Shown: one piece after another, positions 1 through 9,205 of the stretch
Numbering within the stretch: position 1 is the stretch's first letter
Layout: every line of letters begins with the position of its first letter
From: Patescibacteria group bacterium
GTDB taxonomy: Bacteria > Patescibacteriota > Patescibacteriia > JAXHNJ01
Direction of reading: 5' to 3'
Assembly: GCA_034520665.1 (NCBI GenBank)
Contig: JAXHNJ010000001.1
Coordinates: forward strand, 386,579-450,578
Length of the DNA: 64,000 nucleotides
Made by a program: the position numbers and the translations under genes
The notes under the pieces: generated by a model
What the model saw: only the letters and a program-made list of their open reading frames with translations
Database searches by the model: none
What the model was told of the DNA's origin: nothing

Positions 1-30
1 AATTGAATAAGGTAATTTCATGTACAAATA

Positions 31-2607
31 ATGGCAAAAATTAAGAAAAAAAAACTAGAAGATAACATTTCAGTATTTTCGAATACTCTGCCATATTGGG
101 CAAAATATTTAGCAAAAAACATCTCAAATGCCTATATAATCAACGATGATATTTTGGATGCTGCTTATAATTATTTTCTTGAAGATGAAGGTCTTAAAGA
201 AAAAAGTACTAGACCAAATATAGTTGTAGACCCTATAAGTGCCCATGAATCTGGTTATAAAAAGAATCTTGTGTTGAAAAAAATAAAAAATGTTGAAGGA
301 GTAAATATATTAGCAGAGGAACAATTAATTAAGTGCGGACCAAATATAACGATCATATATGGTAAAACAGGTTCTGGTAAAACAGGGTATGGTAGATTAT
401 TAAAAAAAACATTTTTTTCTAGAAGCGAAGAAGATATCATTCCTAATATTAATGTGGTAGGCAAACATAAGAATATTACTGCCAAATTTGCTTTTGAATC
501 AGAAGACGATATATATGAATTGAAATATCCTGATGATGCTGATAAGCCAGAATTTCGTCAATTTGCTGTTTTCGATAATAATAGCGTCAAAATTCATCTC
601 GATGAGAGAAATAAATTTGAATTTAGGCCAAAGAGTCTAGAATTTTTTGGCAAATTGAATGATGCTATCGAAAAGATAAAAACAAAATTGGATTTTGATA
701 TAGTTGAAAAACAACGATCTAAAGACTATCTGGGTTTATTTGATGGTGAATCCGATATTAATAATTTAATAACTAATATTTCAGACAAAACTAAGATTAA
801 AGATTTAGATAAACATTTACCGTTTACAGAAATTGACAAAGAAGCAATAAAAACACTAGAAGAGGAGAAGATTAAGTTACTAACTCTCAAAAAAGTTAAG
901 GAAATAGATGAATTGGACAGAATTAAAGGTCTTATTGCTAATTTAAAGTTATTAATAAACGATGTAAACAAACTCTTGAATGAGTCAAAAATTCTCGAAG
1001 TAAAGGAAGCTATTAAAAACTATGCTAAAAAGCATAACCTTACTAAGAAAGAAGGATTGGATAATTTTAAATCTGACTCAATAAAGAATATTGGTAGTAA
1101 AGAATGGAAAAATTTTATTCAAGCTGCTGATAAGTTTGCTAAAATTCAGTATTCTAAATATCCCAAAGAAGATGATAAGTGTATTCTTTGTCAACAAACT
1201 CTGTCTGAGGAAGCAATAGATTTAATTAATAGGTACAGAATTTTTATCAAGAGTCAAGCTGAAGTAGAAGAACAAGATGCACTTAAGCAAATTGATAAGC
1301 TGAAAGAAATATATAAAGAATTAAATTTAGATTTATTTAATTCAAACGATATTTTAACTATATGGTTATCTGAAAATAAACCAACTATCCTAACCGAATT
1401 GAAAAAAACAATTAATTCTCAAAAAAAATTAGTCAAAAGTATAACTGCCGATTTAAAAACAAAATCTTATTCTGCTAAAAAAGAACTGAAAATAGATGTT
1501 ACAGATTTAGATATAATTGTAACTGAATTAAAAAGTAGGATAAAGAAACTTGAAAATAAAGAACCAAAAAAAGAAATAAAAGAAATAAATAAGAAAATTG
1601 ATTATTTGAAACACAAAGAAAAATTATCACAACACGAACCAAGTATAAAAAAATATATCAATAAACTAAAGTGGGCAAAAGCTGCTGAGAGAAAAAAAAG
1701 TAAATTGTCATCAATAAAATCTAAAAGTACAAAGGAGGAGAAAAGATTATCTGTAATATATTTTAGTGGTGCTTATATCAAATCCTTTAAAAAAGAATGC
1801 AAAAGATTGAGAGGTAATTTTGGGGTTGAAATTAAGTATACCGGTTCATCTGGAACTTCATTTCGTGAATTAAAAATCAAAAAATATTGTCCTTCTGGTA
1901 TTTTAAGTGAAGGAGAACAGAAGGTAATATCATTAGCGGATTTTATTTCAGAGATTAGATTATCCGGTGTAAATAAAGGCATTATTTTTGATGATCCAGT
2001 TACATCTTTAGACGACGAGAGAAAAGAAAATATTGCTAAAAGACTGGCCGCTGAATCTAAAGAAAGACAGGTTATTATTTTTACTCACGATTTAGTTTTT
2101 CTACATGCACTTATTAGTGGTTGTGCTGATGAAGCAGTAAAACGATCATGTCATTGGATTGAGCAATTAGATGGTGAGGCAGGAAAAATTTCAATAGATT
2201 GTTCACCGGCACTAGAAAAAAAATATAAAAAACCCACAAAAGCACAAATTTATTATAAGAAAGCTAAAAATTCCAATCCACAAGATAGAGAAGTTGATAT
2301 AAAAAACGGCTTTACTTCATTGAGAACTTCGTATGAAGCTCTTGTTATTTTTGAACTGTTTGGAGGAGTTGTAGAAAGATTTAGTGATAGAATAAAAATG
2401 GGTAATTTAGAAAAGGTTATATTTAATGTTAAAATAAGAGATAAAATACTTGATAGTTTTGCTAAATGCTGCCGATTTATGGAAGGCCACTTACATAGTG
2501 ATAAATATTCATATAAAAAGCCAACTTTAGAAGATTTGAATAATGAGATAAATAGATTTATTGAAACTAAGAAAGAACTAAAAGATTTAATAAAATCACA
2601 AAAATAA
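31..2607 (+). CDS. ABC/Rad50-type ATPase with long coiled-coil insert and CxxC zinc hook; RloC-like (anticodon-nuclease-like) or SMC-like defence ATPase
   Basis: In-frame TAA at 28-30 makes the N-terminus complete. Walker A is GKTGSGKTG near aa 110. A long K/E-rich coiled-coil region contains CILCQQ, a CxxC hook. ABC signature LSEGEQK, Walker B IIFDDPVTSLDDE and H-loop IIFTHD lie at aa ~630-700. A ~150-aa C-terminal domain carries R-x3-E (LRTSYE) and a later GHLH motif. Confidence 0.55.
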   Translation: MAKIKKKKLEDNISVFSNTLPYWAKYLAKNISNAYIINDDILDAAYNYFLEDEGLKEKSTRPNIVVDPISAHESGYKKNLVLKKIKNVEGVNILAEEQLIKCGPNITIIYGKTGSGKTGYGRLLKKTFFSRSEEDIIPNINVVGKHKNITAKFAFESEDDIYELKYPDDADKPEFRQFAVFDNNSVKIHLDERNKFEFRPKSLEFFGKLNDAIEKIKTKLDFDIVEKQRSKDYLGLFDGESDINNLITNISDKTKIKDLDKHLPFTEIDKEAIKTLEEEKIKLLTLKKVKEIDELDRIKGLIANLKLLINDVNKLLNESKILEVKEAIKNYAKKHNLTKKEGLDNFKSDSIKNIGSKEWKNFIQAADKFAKIQYSKYPKEDDKCILCQQTLSEEAIDLINRYRIFIKSQAEVEEQDALKQIDKLKEIYKELNLDLFNSNDILTIWLSENKPTILTELKKTINSQKKLVKSITADLKTKSYSAKKELKIDVTDLDIIVTELKSRIKKLENKEPKKEIKEINKKIDYLKHKEKLSQHEPSIKKYINKLKWAKAAERKKSKLSSIKSKSTKEEKRLSVIYFSGAYIKSFKKECKRLRGNFGVEIKYTGSSGTSFRELKIKKYCPSGILSEGEQKVISLADFISEIRLSGVNKGIIFDDPVTSLDDERKENIAKRLAAESKERQVIIFTHDLVFLHALISGCADEAVKRSCHWIEQLDGEAGKISIDCSPALEKKYKKPTKAQIYYKKAKNSNPQDREVDIKNGFTSLRTSYEALVIFELFGGVVERFSDRIKMGNLEKVIFNVKIRDKILDSFAKCCRFMEGHLHSDKYSYKKPTLEDLNNEINRFIETKKELKDLIKSQK

Positions 2608-2611
2608 TACA

Positions 2612-3235
2612 ATGGACATATTATTGAGAAAGATAGATAATAAAATAGATAAGTTATGTGTCAGATTTCAAGAGAATAAGGGTTATATCTTGACCGAAAG
2701 CGATTTAAAGTGTGCGATATATTCAGAATTAGTAAAAATTTCTATACTAAACAAATTTACACAAACGGAAGACAGGGACATTTTTTCAAATCCTGTCCAT
2801 ACAGAATTATCCTGGTATGATGAAAACGATAAATTAAATATTATTCCAGATATAACTATATTAGAACCAAAAAACCTAAGTATTTTGCATTATAAGGGAA
2901 GGCCTGGGGTAAAATTGCCAAGTAAACAATGTTCGTTTTGGGGAAATGCAATCGTATTTGAATTAAAGTTCATTCGTAACAAAAAAGGTATTACACCTAA
3001 AACAATTCACGAATTACAAAAGGATTACCTAAAAGTTATTAGACTAATAGAAATATTCAGTCGACATGGAAGTTCTAATGAATTATTTGTATTTCTTATA
3101 GTATTTAACAAAACAAATATCGTATGTAATGAATTCAAAGATTTTATGAAAGATGTTGATAAAAATCGAAGAGTAAGGTTGCTGTACAAAACAGGAAATG
3201 CAAAATTTCCTTCTTTTAACCAGCATCCAAACTAA
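2612..3235 (+). CDS. hypothetical protein with PD-(D/E)xK-like motifs (putative restriction-endonuclease-fold nuclease), in the same operon as the upstream ATPase
   Basis: Starts 5 nt after the ATPase stop. Motifs TELSWYD, IIPDITILE and AIVFELKF are consistent with an E...PD...ExK arrangement. Confidence 0.4.
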   Translation: MDILLRKIDNKIDKLCVRFQENKGYILTESDLKCAIYSELVKISILNKFTQTEDRDIFSNPVHTELSWYDENDKLNIIPDITILEPKNLSILHYKGRPGVKLPSKQCSFWGNAIVFELKFIRNKKGITPKTIHELQKDYLKVIRLIEIFSRHGSSNELFVFLIVFNKTNIVCNEFKDFMKDVDKNRRVRLLYKTGNAKFPSFNQHPN

Positions 3236-3321
3236 TTCGCGTAAATTCTTATAACTATTGTAAAATAAACATTTTAAACTAACAGGTTTTTTGGGCCTAT
3301 TTTTATTTAGATTAGGTATAT

Positions 3322-4287
3322 TTACTTATTCTTCAAAGGATGAAACTTCTTCATTGTTTTCTCGGCGTAGCGGTCAGACGCATGAACATACCTTGTGGTG
3401 GTGTCTAATGACTCATGGCCGAGTAATATTTGTATAGCGGCCGGATTAGCCCCTTGCTCGGCTAAATAAGTAGCAAAGCCATGGCGCAAAGAATGAGCCG
3501 AAGTCGGTACATTAATTTTTAGTCTTTCGCGGTAATGTTTTATTTTATCTTGAAGATAGTTAATAGAAATTCTTTTTTCGTGTTTTGAGGCCCTTTGACC
3601 GCGGTAAGGAATAAAAAGAGCCGGTGAATCATCGGTGCGGATATCTAAGTATTTATTTAAATGATCCTGGGCCCGCGGGGTTAGATAAACAAATCTTTCT
3701 TTTTTGCCTTTACCCATAACAAATATCTTGCCGGTTTTGTCAATTTGATCGCGGTTTAAATTAACCAGTTCCGAGATACGCAGGCCGGTGGAAAACATAA
3801 CCTCCAGCATGGCCCGGTTGCGCCGAGCTACTTTTTTATTTTTTTCAAAATTTGTCGGGGCTTTGATAAGTTTAATAAGGTCTTCCAGCTCAGCTACTCG
3901 GGGATGTTTTTTTTCAGTTTTAGTTAACTTAACCATCTCCGGCGAAATAGGGGAGTGGTATTCATTATCAATAATATATTTTAGATAAGAACGCAAAGAA
4001 GAAAGCATCCGGTTTATTGAGTATGAACCAAGTTTCTTTTGCCCTTGATCATGTTCAGCCGTCTGTCGATCGATTGAAGTGAGGTAGGCTTTATATTGTT
4101 CAATATCTTTTCTTTTCAGATTTTTAAACTTTAAATGATTATCTTTTAAATAATCTTCAAAAACTTTTAAATCTCTCTCGTAATTGTAAATAGTTTTGTC
4201 GGAATAGTTATTTGTCTGCAACATAAGCAGGTAATCATCAAAATACGGCAGAGAAGGGCTGTTTTTGGTTTTATTAGATTTAGTCAT
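3322..4287 (-). CDS. tyrosine recombinase / phage-type integrase (XerC/XerD family)
   Basis: C-terminal catalytic motifs HSLRHGFATYLAEQG and LLGHESLDTTTRYVH are present, with the Tyr nucleophile region and an N-terminal SAM-like domain. Confidence 0.9.
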   Translation of the reverse strand: MTKSNKTKNSPSLPYFDDYLLMLQTNNYSDKTIYNYERDLKVFEDYLKDNHLKFKNLKRKDIEQYKAYLTSIDRQTAEHDQGQKKLGSYSINRMLSSLRSYLKYIIDNEYHSPISPEMVKLTKTEKKHPRVAELEDLIKLIKAPTNFEKNKKVARRNRAMLEVMFSTGLRISELVNLNRDQIDKTGKIFVMGKGKKERFVYLTPRAQDHLNKYLDIRTDDSPALFIPYRGQRASKHEKRISINYLQDKIKHYRERLKINVPTSAHSLRHGFATYLAEQGANPAAIQILLGHESLDTTTRYVHASDRYAEKTMKKFHPLKNK

Positions 4288-4864
4288 ATTTTATTGAGTG
4301 TAAGGGATATTATACCCAGTTATATTATTATTGTAATACAGCCTCTTTTAGCTGTCAAGGGGACTTTTTTATTAATTACACCTATAATAGGTCTATTTAA
4401 TATTTTTATATCAATTCTACTCTTCTGCTCTTAAATAATTTTATTTAATCATTTTATGGCTTTTATAAAAAATTTATGTATTATTATGAATATTATTTAT
4501 AACTCTATCAAATTTTAAAATAATTAGATACTTATATCTATCCGGAGTTATTTTAAGGCCCTTAAATCGCCGCTTATTTATCCGATATTTATACTAATTG
4601 AACCAAACAAGATTTTAATCTCTTTTTAATATACCATTCCCCTCTTGGTTATAAAAAAATTTTAAGTTTAAAGTAATTAACTATTTAAAGAATATAGTGA
4701 CTAACCTATTATTTATTAATATTGATAGTTAGTTTTAGTGTCGCAAAATATATGAGAAATTTTTATAAAACGAATTAAACGTTTAATTATAGTGATAATT
4801 ATTTTTTTAGGCGTTAACAAAAGGTTTATCTCCGCTACGAGTCTCAATTAGTCCTCTAAAATAT

Positions 4865-5671
4865 TTATAATATTTTCTTAATCTCATTTATTTCAGCAGC
4901 GGCTGCCTCTTCACCCCGTTTGATCAGCTTTTTAGTATTTTTCTGAGCAAAGAATTTTTCTAAACCGACTATCCGGTCACCGCCAACTTTCGGCTCAATA
5001 ATAATATCAGCTTGGTCCATAGATAGTTTAGCTAAACTGGAAGCAACAATATTATAGGAGCGCATAGCTAGCTTAATCATAGAAATATTCTTATGAAAAT
5101 TAAGTTTATGGGGAAAATAGCCGTTTTCAATATTAACAGCCAGGATTATATCAGCCCCCATATTTTTAACCTCGTTATCCGGTACTGGATCAACTAAGCC
5201 GCCATCAGCTAAAAGTCTTTTTTGATAATAGATGGGATCAAAAATTAAAGGGGCCGAAAAGCTAGCTCGGATGGCTTTGATTAAATTACCAGCATTTAAA
5301 ATGACCTTCTGACACTTATTTATATCCGTGGTAATCACCGCCAGCGGAATCTTGAGTTCTTTGAAACTATTGACGGTGAGAAAATTATTTATAAATTTTT
5401 CTAATTTTTTACCTTTAATTAAACCGCCTTTTTTGCCAAAATCTAAAATTGATAATCCGGTTTTCCAGTCCGCTTCTAGTATTGTCTTTTCCACTTTTTT
5501 AATATCTAAGCAAGAAGCATAAAAAGCCCCGATTAAAGCACCAATGGAGGAACCAGCTATATAATCGATAGGTATATTATTTTTTTCTAAAACTTTAATA
5601 ACACCAATATGAGCTAGACCGCGAAATCCGCCGGAACCCAAGGCCAAACCAATTTTTTTTCTTTTAATCAT
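4865..5671 (-). CDS. patatin-like phospholipase
   Basis: GxGxxG oxyanion motif GSGGFRGLAHIG, GxSxG serine motif GSSIG, and a downstream DGG catalytic Asp region. Confidence 0.85.
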   Translation of the reverse strand: MIKRKKIGLALGSGGFRGLAHIGVIKVLEKNNIPIDYIAGSSIGALIGAFYASCLDIKKVEKTILEADWKTGLSILDFGKKGGLIKGKKLEKFINNFLTVNSFKELKIPLAVITTDINKCQKVILNAGNLIKAIRASFSAPLIFDPIYYQKRLLADGGLVDPVPDNEVKNMGADIILAVNIENGYFPHKLNFHKNISMIKLAMRSYNIVASSLAKLSMDQADIIIEPKVGGDRIVGLEKFFAQKNTKKLIKRGEEAAAAEINEIKKIL

Positions 5672-5680
5672 AGATTAAAA

Positions 5681-5746
5681 TTACTTATTTTTATTTTCGT
5701 AATTTTGGATAGCTTTTAATAAGGTGTCAGCGTCCAAGTTTGAACA
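5681..5746 (-). pseudogene. diverged duplicate fragment of the iscU 3' end (last ~20 codons)
   Basis: Translation CSNLDADTLLKAIQNYENKNK matches the IscU C-terminus HCSNLAADALKKAIEDYEKKKK. It is about 75% identical at the nucleotide level to 6456-6520. Confidence 0.4.
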
Positions 5747-5821
5747 GAAATATATATTGACTATGAAAATCGCTTTTGATATGATAATATCATCGTTCTT
5801 CATAAAATAAGGAGGAAAAAC

Positions 5822-6283
5822 ATGATCGATATTATTGATTTTCAGCCGAAGTATTTCGAGAATATGGTAACTTGTTACCAATTTGGTTTTCCGGAGGGAC
5901 ATAATCGTTATACTCTCGGTCGTTTAGCGCGATGGCAGAGAGATACAATCATTTTGGCTCGTCATAATAAAACAGTTGTTGGCGTGTTAATCGGTATTAT
6001 CTCGTATCAGGAAGCCTGGTTTACTGCACTGACGGTATTGCCGACTGTACCCTTGTTAGATAAATGTTCTCTTCATCTTGTTAAAGCCATGGCGCTTCGA
6101 TTCATCGAACTAGGCTTTACTGAAGCCTACTTTACTACTGTGCGTCGTAGTGTGCTTCGATTAGCGAAGCGAATCAAAGCTACAAAAATACAAACAGTTC
6201 CTCATTGCTACTATGATGGTAATAAACGACATCTTATCACTGTATCTACAGAAAATCTCCCGTTCATTAATCAGTTACTCTAA
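5822..6283 (+). CDS. hypothetical protein, possibly a degenerate GNAT-like acyltransferase; visibly higher G+C than its surroundings
   Basis: 153-aa ORF; a beta-strand/helix pattern VVGVLIGII...LGFTEAYFTT resembles a GNAT core. The real start may be the internal Met at 5864. Confidence 0.3.
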   Translation: MIDIIDFQPKYFENMVTCYQFGFPEGHNRYTLGRLARWQRDTIILARHNKTVVGVLIGIISYQEAWFTALTVLPTVPLLDKCSLHLVKAMALRFIELGFTEAYFTTVRRSVLRLAKRIKATKIQTVPHCYYDGNKRHLITVSTENLPFINQLL

Positions 6284-6455
6284 ATGTTTAATACAAGCTA
6301 AAGCATACCAAGCTTTAGCTTTTTCTTTAATATCTAAACACACAAAAAATCAAGAATATTTACTGGTATATACTAATATTAGCATTAAAAGAATTGTTTG
6401 AGTTTATGATTTACCTTCTCTTTAAAGTAATGAAATTTTATTATAATTAAATAAT

Positions 6456-6824
6456 TTATTTCTTTTTCTTTTCGTAATCCTCAATCGCTTTTTTCAAGGC
6501 GTCAGCCGCTAGGTTTGAACAATGCATTTTTATTGTTGGCAAGCCACCAAGTTGGTCAGCAATATCTTCGCGGGTAATTTTACTAGCTTGTTCAAGAGTT
6601 TTACCTTTAGCTAATTCAGTAATCATAGAAGAAGTAGCAATCGCGGCCCCGCAGCCAAGAGTTTCAAACTTAATATCTTTAATTTTATTATCTTTAACCT
6701 TAATATAAATTTTCATGATATCCCCGCAGGTGGGATTACCGACCTCTCCGACGCCATCCGGTTTTTTCATTTGACCTAAGTTACGCGGATTTTGAAAATG
6801 GTCAAGAACTTTTTTAGTATACAT
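6456..6824 (-). CDS. iscU: Fe-S cluster assembly scaffold IscU/NifU-like
   Basis: Conserved Cys motifs GNPTCGD, LGCGAAIA and HCSNLAADAL. Confidence 0.9.
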   Translation of the reverse strand: MYTKKVLDHFQNPRNLGQMKKPDGVGEVGNPTCGDIMKIYIKVKDNKIKDIKFETLGCGAAIATSSMITELAKGKTLEQASKITREDIADQLGGLPTIKMHCSNLAADALKKAIEDYEKKKK

Positions 6825-6908
6825 GGATTTGGTTAATTAGTGATTAGTTAATTTTAATTAGGGATTAGTTGGAAAATTTGTCGAGTGTCTAATGTCTGTG
6901 GTCCTTAA

Positions 6909-8186
6909 TTATACTAAATTCTGCCAGAAAAACCAACCAATTAACCATGAGACAGTTACAGCTGATAAAGTAAAAGGTAGTCCGATTTTGAAAAATTGCC
7001 AAAAACTGATATCTTCACCAGCTTTTTTCTTGGCAATACCAACCGAAACAATATTAGCCGACGCTCCTATGGGAGTAATATTACCACCCACTGAAGCTCC
7101 AAGCAAGAGTGAAAAATAAAATAAATAAGGACTAACCCCCAAATGAACCGCTAAACCGGCGGTTACGGGTAGCATTATTAGTATATAGGGAACATTATCA
7201 ATAACAGCGCTGATAATAACTGAAAACCAGAGAATTATAGAGTAGGTTAAAAATACATTGCCAGCGGTTAGGGATTTCATAGTACTAGTTAAGGCCTCAA
7301 TTATACCACCAGACTCCAACGAACCAACTATTATAAAAATACAGAACAAAAATACCGAAGTGTTCCAATCCAATGGTTTCAACAGCCCGGGCAAGGTATG
7401 AATATCCTCTTTTATTAATAACCAGATCAAACCGATTAAAGCGTAAGCTAAAGTAATAATACCGGCTAAATAATGGAATTGTGAGCCATAAATTGAGGCT
7501 AGAGCTAAGGAAATAATTAATAAAATTATTAAAATAGTGGGAGTCCAAGACTTAACATTCACCTTATAAAGTTCCCCCACTCCCCGCGTATGGCGGCGAA
7601 AGATTAGATACAAAACAAATATAGAGATAATGGCCCCGGCCTGAACAGCAAAAAATATCCCGGGAGAACCTTTAAACCAGAAAAAGTCATTAAAAGTCAT
7701 TTTAGAAAAACCGGCCAGAATCATACTCGGTGGATCACCGACTAAAGTGGCTGTTCCTTGCAGATTGGAACAAACCGCAATACCAATTAAAAAGGGGGCT
7801 ACCTTAATTCTTAAGTGTCTGGCTAAAGAAATAGCTAAAGGAGCGATAATTAATACAGTGGCTACATTTTCAACAAAAGCCGAAATAAAACTGGTTAAAG
7901 CACAAATAAGTATAAAGGCCATAGCGGTAGTTTTGGCTTTATTGGCCAGAGTACGGGCTAAAAAAGCGGGTACTCTTGAGTCTATAAATAGATCAGCTAA
8001 AACTAGCATGCCAACAAAGATAGCCATCACATTCCAATTAACAAAACTAAAGGCTTGTCCAGGGCTAATAGTGCCGCTTAATATAAGTAAAGCTGTGGCC
8101 AGGCCAACCACCAGAAGTTTATTTATTTTACCAAAAATAAGAAAAAGATAAGTAAATATAAAAATTGTCAGTATAAAATAGTTCAT
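6909..8186 (-). CDS. ArsB/NhaD-superfamily anion permease (citrate/arsenite-transporter-like), polytopic membrane protein
   Basis: 425 aa with about 12 hydrophobic helices and a two-repeat architecture. Confidence 0.55.
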   Translation of the reverse strand: MNYFILTIFIFTYLFLIFGKINKLLVVGLATALLILSGTISPGQAFSFVNWNVMAIFVGMLVLADLFIDSRVPAFLARTLANKAKTTAMAFILICALTSFISAFVENVATVLIIAPLAISLARHLRIKVAPFLIGIAVCSNLQGTATLVGDPPSMILAGFSKMTFNDFFWFKGSPGIFFAVQAGAIISIFVLYLIFRRHTRGVGELYKVNVKSWTPTILIILLIISLALASIYGSQFHYLAGIITLAYALIGLIWLLIKEDIHTLPGLLKPLDWNTSVFLFCIFIIVGSLESGGIIEALTSTMKSLTAGNVFLTYSIILWFSVIISAVIDNVPYILIMLPVTAGLAVHLGVSPYLFYFSLLLGASVGGNITPIGASANIVSVGIAKKKAGEDISFWQFFKIGLPFTLSAVTVSWLIGWFFWQNLV

Positions 8187-9205
8187 TGGTAATATATTCT
8201 TCTGCCAAATCTAAGATCAATATATTTTAAATTTTCCTCCTGACCTTTTAACTCAGTTTTTAAAACCGTATTAAGTAAATTTATTTGGCTGTTAATATCC
8301 TCGGATACGTCAAAGTAAATAAGATATTCTTTTGTGGTTAGTACATTGATATAGTTGGTCTTTTTTAATTTTTCTTGTTCTAGACAATCTTGACTGTAAA
8401 TTGAATTAGTATTTTTATTTAGATTTAAATTTAGCTTAGAATTATTAGTGTTATTATTAGTCTGGCTATCAGAATTAGTATTGTTATTGGTATTGGTTTC
8501 ATTTTGCGGTATTAGAGGGCAAGTCATAACCGGGGTTTCAAAGCGCTCAATTTCAAGACCAATTGTGTTTAATGACTTTTTAATTTTTTCTAAATGACTG
8601 AGGATATCGTTATTTATAACTTTGTCTCCGGGACTAATATAAAACTCATTAACATCATAAATTAAAGGAAAGGCGGGATTAATTTTTTCTTTTTTGACAT
8701 CCTGGGCTACTACCCCCTCGCGGTTTATATAAAAATAATTATCTTTACGCTGCCAGGTTATTGAGGGAATAATTTCTTTTAAGGTAATTTTAACAGTGCG
8801 AGGAAATTTCTTTTTTAAGGTAAATTGATCCAGGCCAGTTTCTTTTTGAATTTGTTCTTTTAAAAGTCTTTCGGCCTTTTCATCATTAAACATAAAGAAG
8901 TTTTTTTGTGAGAAAACCAAAAAACGGTCCTTAGCCAGCTCTTGTTTTACCATTTGCTCAATAGACCCGGCTTTGGTTTTTTGGGCTCCATGAACCTTAA
9001 TAAATTGGATTTGAAAAACTTCTGAGAAAAATATTAAATAGCCCAAAGCAAAAAAAATAAGAATAAAAAATCCATAATGAACTTTTATTTTTCTTATAAA
9101 AATATCCAAAAAATTTTCTTTGGAAAAAAAAGGATTCTTATATTCTTTTTTTGGTTTATTTAAGGGTTTAACACGACGCCTTTTGCGGAATGGATTTAAG
9201 CGCAT
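8183..9205 (-). CDS. ftsQ: cell division protein FtsQ/DivIB-like (single TM plus POTRA-like domain)
   Basis: Basic N-terminus, one TM helix and a periplasmic domain. It lies immediately downstream of ddl, the classic ddl-ftsQ order, with a 4-nt overlap to the next gene. Confidence 0.6.
   Translation of the reverse strand: MRLNPFRKRRRVKPLNKPKKEYKNPFFSKENFLDIFIRKIKVHYGFFILIFFALGYLIFFSEVFQIQFIKVHGAQKTKAGSIEQMVKQELAKDRFLVFSQKNFFMFNDEKAERLLKEQIQKETGLDQFTLKKKFPRTVKITLKEIIPSITWQRKDNYFYINREGVVAQDVKKEKINPAFPLIYDVNEFYISPGDKVINNDILSHLEKIKKSLNTIGLEIERFETPVMTCPLIPQNETNTNNNTNSDSQTNNNTNNSKLNLNLNKNTNSIYSQDCLEQEKLKKTNYINVLTTKEYLIYFDVSEDINSQINLLNTVLKTELKGQEENLKYIDLRFGRRIYYQ

Follow-up and report, generated by a model that had tools for sequence, protein, structure and literature searches.

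How does a foreign gene come to sit between two copies of the same gene terminus? The question is raised by a window of 64 kb (the whole stretch of DNA analysed here) from a Patescibacteria metagenome-assembled genome (MAG). In it, iscU, the gene for a NifU-type Fe-S scaffold protein, is followed by an open reading frame (ORF) of 153 codons, ORF153 (NCBI locus tag U5L76_02005), and then by a second, diverged copy of the iscU end. The minus-strand gene order, from ~12.7 kb downward, is serS, alr, ddl, an FtsQ-like gene, the gene for a CitMHS/ArsB-type transporter, and iscU. Beyond iscU come ORF153 on the plus strand and, again on the minus strand, a gene for a patatin-like phospholipase, a 577-nt spacer, and a tyrosine recombinase gene (xer; Table 1). 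A preliminary description of this region proposed an integrase-bearing island, built by one or two nested or tandem integrations at the iscU 3' end. The repeated terminus turns out to bracket ORF153 alone, and relatives carry the neighboring genes in the same order without ORF153.

Is the second terminus a genuine copy? The last 22 codons of iscU (tail A, 6456–6521) and the relic (tail B, 5681–5746) align without gaps and are identical at 50 of 66 nt (75.8%), in a shared reading frame and with aligned stop codons. Their translations (CSNLDADTLLKAIQNYENKNK vs CSNLAADALKKAIEDYEKKKK, each followed by a stop) agree at 14 of 21 residues. The homology runs from the Cys106 codon to the stop codon or to 3 nt past it. 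When the iscU tail is aligned locally against the rest of the window, the tail B site scores 52 and the runner-up 29, and tblastn recovers tail B as well. The pair is also the longest and top-ranked direct repeat of the region, with a spacing of 775 nt. AT-rich DNA yields many weak repeats, and chance similarity or an assembly artefact would be one way to account for the match, but the probability of either is negligible: none of 60 shuffled queries scored above 37 (26.6 ± 2.5), the reading frame is kept down to the stop, and the same arrangement recurs on two independently assembled Logan contigs as well as on the NCBI MAG contig. Exact-protein look-ups returned matches solely from the source organism's own contigs. 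Thus, the diverged copy of the IscU C-terminus noted earlier is real, and iscU itself is intact, as also stated then; the protein retains its C-terminal helix with Cys106, and the HCSNLAADAL motif is present. Outside the 66 nt, the flanks of the two tails show no significant similarity (p = 0.15 to 0.75). We also considered whether remnants of the patatin 5' end follow tail A, or remnants of the iscU body precede tail B, but neither extension of the homology reached significance.

What do the repeats enclose? They bracket only 5747–6455, a stretch of 709 nt that holds one gene unit. This insert is free of integrase genes, tRNAs and Rfam elements; no tRNA or tmRNA gene was found, and no Rfam family was detected in positions 1–9000. 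A third copy of the tail was found neither in window positions 1–5680 nor in the 2.3 kb further left (Logan contig L166:1–2329).

What did the site look like without ORF153? Useful relatives were drawn from homologues of the recombinase and of the patatin, followed by look-ups of their contigs, and their loci are given L numbers here. L167 reads CitMHS, iscU, 6 nt, patatin, eight small ORFs, and xer; L173 reads iscU tail, 7 nt, patatin, a 100-aa ORF, and xer. L171 and L172 share the order serS, alr, ddl, ftsQ, CitMHS, iscU, ORF376/377, and patatin, and the L172 contig continues to xer. Patatin adjoins the iscU site in all four of these syntenic relatives, xer lies downstream in the three whose contigs reach so far (L167, L172 and L173), and ORF153 is absent from all four. 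In the window, 9 nt separate the tail B stop from the patatin ATG, so that tail B occupies the position of the native iscU terminus in L167 and L173. Judging from this shared gene order, the iscU-patatin adjacency is best taken as ancestral, with L167 and L173 as empty sites. Patatin is the ancestral downstream neighbor of iscU and not island cargo. Very likely, then, the ORF153 unit was inserted into an ancestral iscU-patatin junction. The earlier proposal that DNA had been inserted at the iscU 3' end, leaving a duplicated terminus, is borne out by the empty arrangement of the two relatives, in which the iscU stop and the patatin ATG are only 6–7 nt apart.

Beyond the four syntenic relatives and the source genome, the best patatin matches are 53–56% identical. 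A patatin scan of GTDB genomes gave 80 loci, all at ≤53% identity and none with iscU or xer nearby, and was uninformative on synteny. A scan of metagenomes with IscU gave 80 loci at 64–81% identity, which have no common neighbors; most have iscS upstream. None of 77 other iscU loci, nor the iscU loci of L167, L171 and L172, has a duplicated iscU tail, and ORF153 was found at none of the other iscU loci examined. A cysteine desulfurase of 388–401 aa precedes iscU in most of the long related loci inspected (L087, L101, L108, L111 and L116, for example). No homologue of it is detectable across the 64-kb window, where iscU sits between the CitMHS/ArsB-type transporter gene and the patatin gene.

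Is ORF153 foreign? Its homologues are few: one, 58% identical, among 5.8 billion proteins, and 15 representative clusters of relatives among 1.84 billion. The 58% homologue lies on unrelated JGI contigs (L003–L005), with DUF134, VTT, SpoU, NUDIX and FeoAB as neighbors, and neither iscU nor an iscU-like tail occurs near it there. Upstream of ORF153, a promoter scan found a strong sigma-70-like promoter matching at 10 of 12 positions, and a terminator scan found a hairpin with a T-run after the gene. The −35 box, −10 box, Shine-Dalgarno sequence and ATG align ungapped and in register with the region upstream of the L003 homologue, which argues that the promoter arrived with the gene. Neither the DNA downstream of the L003 homologue nor the 5' end of patatin shows homology to the spacer between ORF153 and iscU (6284–6455). 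ORF153 is a self-contained foreign unit of promoter, Shine-Dalgarno sequence, gene and terminator. The preliminary description had called the gene visibly GC-richer. It is slightly above its neighbors, but that wording overstates the difference: GC content is 0.396 and GC at third codon positions (GC3) 0.338, vs 0.374 and 0.325 for iscU, and host genes range over 0.275–0.426 and 0.18–0.42. Base composition was dropped as evidence for recent transfer, since ORF153 falls within the host range. A single-protein scan of viral contigs found no relatives of ORF153.

Table 1. Features of the iscU-xer region in window coordinates, and positions of the xer-upstream motif at other loci.
Feature	Position	Strand	Remarks
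iscU/nifU-type Fe-S scaffold gene	6456..6824	-	Intact, 122 aa; PF01592 E 9e-51; TIGR03419 204.3 bits, cut-off 187.9
Tail A, last 22 codons of iscU	6456-6521	-	Family-consensus sequence HCSNLAADALKKAIEDY
Spacer from ORF153 stop to iscU stop	6284..6455		21% GC; terminator-like hairpin 6295-6321 (+), then TTTCTTTAAT
ORF153, divergent, putative GNAT fold (Naa10/Ard1/RimI-like)	5822..6283	+	Sole gene between both iscU tails
ORF153 expression signals	5757..5821	+	TTGACT-17-TATGAT with TG (5757-5785), then AAGGAGG Shine-Dalgarno
Tail B, relic of the last 21 codons and stop of iscU	5681..5746	-	50/66 nt identical to tail A
Patatin-like phospholipase (RssA-like)	4865..5671	-	PF01734 E 3e-32
AT-rich intergenic region upstream of xer	4288..4864		577 nt, 23% GC; cumulative G-C skew maximum ~4306
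Promoter TTGACA-17-TACAAT within the 4288-4864 spacer	4358-4330	-	From promoter scan
Conserved 25-nt motif within the 4288-4864 spacer	4298-4322	-	Upstream of xer
Xer-type tyrosine recombinase	3322..4287	-	PF00589 E 3e-33, PF02899 E 2e-11; outside the repeat-bounded insert
858-aa ATPase and 207-aa partner	31..3235 (ATPase 31-2607)	+	Opposite strand, beyond xer
Motif sites at other loci	L167:6967-6991; L168:6839-6863; L169:2044-2068; L170:6795-6819; L173:1400-1424; L174:836-860; L175:4260-4284

Did the neighboring recombinase bring the insert? A tyrosine recombinase and an ATPase of a candidate defence family lie within 6 kb, as would be expected of one or two tandem or nested integrase-bearing islands that carry ORF153, patatin, the integrase and the ATPase module at the iscU 3' end, with a far boundary left of the window; the search for further tail copies reached only 2.3 kb beyond the window start, which leaves some room for such a boundary. 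Several observations make islands of this kind very improbable at best. The repeats bracket only ORF153, and patatin and the recombinase, which lie outside them, stand in the same order beside iscU in relatives that lack the insert. The recombinase is ~70% identical across the phylum and syntenic with ddl/ftsQ, and there is no third repeat in the sequence covered. The ATPase module, which the preliminary description had counted as part of the island, lies on the other strand, beyond xer and the skew switch, across the probable replication terminus. It is not linked to the iscU repeat.

The recombinase itself, the only tyrosine recombinase in 64 kb, was earlier called a XerC/D-type integrase. 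The protein family holds up. The XerC/XerD/XerA models match it at E 1e-60 to 1e-51, led by TIGR02224 (E 9e-60) and TIGR02225 (E 1e-57), but its scores are below the NCBIfam equivalog cut-offs (XerC 202.6 bits vs 335; XerD 192.2 bits vs 330), and hence it is labelled Xer-type rather than XerC or XerD. It has more than 4600 homologues. The best 120 are all 67–77% identical, 309–351 aa long (most 310–330), and span Kerfeldbacteria, Buchananbacteria and other Patescibacteria. xer lies near alr/ddl/ftsQ in the window and in L168 (Kerfeldbacteria), L170, L172 and L175. This conserved gene is likely the chromosomal Xer and not island cargo; FtsK-dependent dimer resolution would be the predicted role for a member of the XerC/XerD-type class. 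The position of the gene is consistent with this. Cumulative G-C climbs from the left end of the window to its maximum in the spacer upstream of xer and then declines over the remaining 60 kb, and gene orientations converge at ~3280. Replication of the chromosome probably terminates at positions 3280–4500, although gene strand and skew cannot be counted as separate lines of evidence for this. L172 has a second tyrosine recombinase gene directly upstream of xer, together with a 175-aa ORF (L172:11312–12818); the encoded 324-aa recombinase is only distantly related to that of the window (32% identity).

Where, then, did the two tails come from? Tail A looks native, being indistinguishable over 16 residues from the tails of the nearest relatives of the IscU body. 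Tail B has substitutions at otherwise nearly invariant positions (A>D, A>T and D>N), and is predicted to be non-functional as IscU; it is now the sequence directly upstream of patatin. Compared over 51 nt with tail A and 83 other iscU tails, tail B matches tail A best, at 38 of 51 nt, vs at most 36 and on average 29.3 for the others (z = 2.8). The tails use the same codon at 8 of 12 positions where they encode the same residue, while the most that either shares with any of the 83 other iscU genes is 6 (tail B) or 7 (tail A). Among the codons in common are AAC, GAC and TAC, all ending in C, against a genomic GC3 of ~0.3. Because of this codon sharing and the best nucleotide match, the tails appear to be sister copies from one lineage, which points to duplication in situ.

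On this evidence, the following course of events is proposed. A tightly packed ancestral iscU-patatin pair would have been split by one self-contained foreign unit of ~709 nt (5747–6455), with the break at the Cys106 codon of iscU, 66 nt ahead of the stop. The last 22 codons would have been duplicated in situ during an illegitimate or repair-mediated insertion. iscU would have retained a complete terminus in tail A; tail B would have stayed joined to patatin, drifted, and persisted as its upstream leader. The neighboring Xer would not have brought the insert, and the region would be a terminus-proximal zone of variable gene content. We infer the duplication in situ, as opposed to an element-borne mimic of the tail, and put it at about an even chance. 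The retention of tail B as the patatin leader is likewise inferred. Tail B itself contains, at 5702–5730 (-) and upstream of the patatin ATG, a weak match to a promoter (CTGACA-17-CAAAAT, 9/12), which would supply a reason for the persistence of the relic. A 73-aa ORF at 5681–5902 (-), unmatched by any family and probably not a true gene, reads through tail B in frame and overlaps the ORF153 start on the opposite strand.

Several points weigh against duplication in situ. First, 66 nt is long for a target duplication in illegitimate insertion. Second, tail B differs by 16 substitutions with no indel, an open frame, an aligned stop and only 7 amino acid changes. Simulated pure neutral decay gives such differences with P = 0.012–0.017, and when tail A is kept under constraint while tail B evolves neutrally, P rises to a marginal 0.068. 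Since an indel-free, frame-keeping tail B fits decay only marginally, there is room for two alleles that had diverged before the event, possibly from an element-borne mimic or a donor fragment. Third, the common codons could stem partly from codon bias or gene conversion. Fourth, the search turned up no congeneric or conspecific genome by which to date the insertion event, and the sequence read to the left reaches only 2.3 kb beyond the window start.

The first source of pre-diverged alleles would be a small site-specific integrative element, of which the insert would be a remnant. Its attP would have contained a mimic of the iscU 3' end, with TGTTCAAAC, a block of 9 identical nt at the repeat's inner edge, as core; on integration, tail A would have come from the element and the native tail B would have been displaced, and the integrase would later have been lost or would have acted in trans. 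Direct repeats over a gene 3' end are what such an element would leave, and the identical block lies exactly at the homology boundary. The preserved frame and stop of tail B, with synonymous differences in excess of neutral decay, and a rare, horizontally distributed cargo would fit as well. However, the block encodes the invariant Cys-Ser-Asn, for which identity is expected anyway, and there is no recombinase between the repeats. Tail A is congruent with the iscU body, and no other tail has as many synonymous codons in common with A or B as these two have with each other. Neither the duplicated tail nor ORF153 recurs in the other iscU loci described above, and the homologous unit in L003–L005 lacks an iscU-like flank. 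Taken together, this makes an integrative element an unlikely source of the insert.

The second source would be a related donor, whose iscU (or the 3' part of it) and ORF153 would have recombined within iscU by homology, with the other end joined illegitimately at the recipient's Cys codon and the native tail B left behind. Such an import, which we regard as improbable, would account for two diverged in-frame tails without long decay. Two further observations lend it some weight: the IscU of the window lacks the signature residues of the syntenic relatives and is closest to that of an unrelated contig (L086, 80%), and the identities in L167 are mosaic, so inter-lineage recombination does occur in the region. 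On the other hand, tail B too lacks the signature states of the relatives, the two tails share codon choices, and no donor-like iscU-ORF153 arrangement was found. Replacement of iscU by a xenologue, suggested by the missing signature residues, was considered and dropped, because IscU diverges from L171/L172 (75%) in proportion to citMHS and xer. As to the mosaic, xer and iscU of L167 are 93–94% identical to those of L172/L173, while its CitMHS and patatin are only 62–71% identical, a pattern that suggests recombination between lineages in the region.

Could the junction attract insertions? In L171 (6871–8001) and L172 (6867–8000), ORF376/377 occupies the same iscU-patatin junction; it is lipoprotein-like and, by eye, has a WEVMNEPD GH5-like motif. 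A short duplication is hinted at in L172 as well, where the iscU stop is followed by a sequence (ACATCATGAATAAATT) similar to the L173 junction plus the start of patatin. The junction, ~1.4 kb from the Xer gene, could be conceived as a recurrent docking point for promoter-bearing one-gene modules such as ORF153 and ORF376/377, a notion that we hold to be highly improbable, and it would be just as far-fetched to have the modules inserted by the host Xer in trans, at a degenerate site within the iscU tail. If true, this would amount to an Xer-exploiting mini-cassette system in Patescibacteria. When the ORF153 unit was examined as a possible Xer-exploiting element (IMEX) or dif module, no Xer-site-like flanks were found, and the motif described below, upstream of xer, occurs once in 64 kb at ≤3 mismatches.

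How does the locus compare with known systems? Three comparisons are apt. First, it resembles integrative elements and islands at the 3' ends of tRNA, tmRNA and protein genes, bounded by attL/attR, in that the DNA is inserted at a gene 3' end with imperfect direct repeats over the terminus, the target gene is intact, and the cargo is missing from the same site in relatives. Unlike those elements, the iscU insert has no integrase inside its repeats and consists of ~0.7 kb with one gene, neither site nor element recurs in the other iscU loci examined (77 and the syntenic relatives), and the repeats resemble sister copies of one genome rather than host vs element. Second, Acinetobacter pdif modules, as characterized in PMC12907356 and PMC11705084, are likewise small, self-contained one-gene units close to an Xer recombinase. 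Those modules are described there as bounded by Xer sites, whereas the ORF153 unit is flanked by iscU-tail repeats that are not Xer-site-like. Third, the XerS/difSL system of streptococci and lactococci (PMC1914069) shares with the window a conserved tyrosine recombinase at a terminus-like skew switch, with a short dyad-like motif just upstream; in streptococci, dif lies directly upstream of the single xerS gene (PMC1914069). The recombinase of the window is, however, closer to the XerC/XerD/XerA models than to XerS, and its motif, a candidate site, overlaps a −10-like TATAAT.

This motif, 25 nt long (TAACTGNGTATAATANCNCTTACAC), is found on the xer strand upstream of xer in the window and at seven other loci; the L175 copy carries 4 mismatches. 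It has one occurrence in the 64-kb window even at 3 mismatches, with 0 expected. By eye, its dyad symmetry is partial and imperfect (TAA[CT]GGG...CCCTTA). Given this partial dyad and the lack of covariation in the L168 and L170 variants, the motif is not claimed as dif. It could serve as a dif-like or regulatory (including autoregulatory) site, by analogy with the XerS/difSL arrangement, or simply belong to the promoter or leader. In L172, the motif is absent from the region where the second recombinase lies. Nothing specific on Xer/dif in Patescibacteria was found in the literature, and the sequence is put forward as a candidate Xer-associated motif conserved across divergent Patescibacteria.

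What does ORF153 encode? The GNAT-like assignment of the preliminary description stands, at the level of the family profile. A profile of 14 family members (alignment A2) matches the structures of Naa10, Ard1, SSO0209 and YpeA at 1e-9 to 1e-6 (Naa10 in the PDB at 1.3e-9, over residues 1–148), and 8 of the 14 members match PF00583, the best at 1.4e-11. ORF153 alone scores 13.2 bits against the Pfam GNAT model (E 0.11), below the cut-off of 20.7, and an AlphaFold2 model of it, built from 2 sequences, has low confidence (mean pLDDT 50.6). ORF153 is best described, from these comparisons, as a rare, divergent GNAT that is Naa10/RimI-like and recognised only through its family. Like the N-terminal acetyltransferases of the Naa10/Ard1/RimI type, the family aligns over ~148 residues with Naa10, archaeal Ard1 and YpeA, but ORF153 itself lacks, by inspection, the acetyl-CoA-binding loop Q/R-x-x-G-x-G/A. 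The corresponding A2 columns read RRQGYG in P0011, RRKGYA in P0012 and PLLDKCSL in ORF153. By the same inspection, the nearest relatives of ORF153 also lack the loop, which the distant members P0011 and P0012 have kept. ORF153 may be non-catalytic, or its mode of cofactor binding may differ.

The remaining parts of the region largely agree with the preliminary description. The patatin-like phospholipase and the AT-rich nature of the 577-nt spacer are as it reported (Table 1). On the left flank, the 858-aa ATPase matches the PADLOC candidate PDC-S06 over its full length (PDLC04891, E 3.3e-129, residues 11–851 of 858), PDC-S06 being a candidate defence family only; its 207-aa partner has no family match. 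The sequence that adjoins the window on its left (L166:368–2249) holds a PIF1/RecD-like helicase gene and a 168-aa ORF. In gene content, the ATPase/helicase region resembles a variable region of the defence type, separated from xer by the probable terminus.

What are the implications of this locus? First, one promoter-bearing foreign gene became fixed in an operon junction of 6–9 nt without loss of either neighbor, thanks to a duplicated gene end; the comparison with empty sites documents this. Second, the study has yielded, as a by-product, a rare GNAT subfamily, apparently without the canonical acetyl-CoA loop. Third, the locus leaves our current understanding of mobile elements unchanged: it is a genuine gene gain, small and of an ordinary kind, in a variable zone close to the terminus. 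In the ultra-small genomes of Patescibacteria, a tyrosine recombinase beside variable genes need not mark a mobile island.

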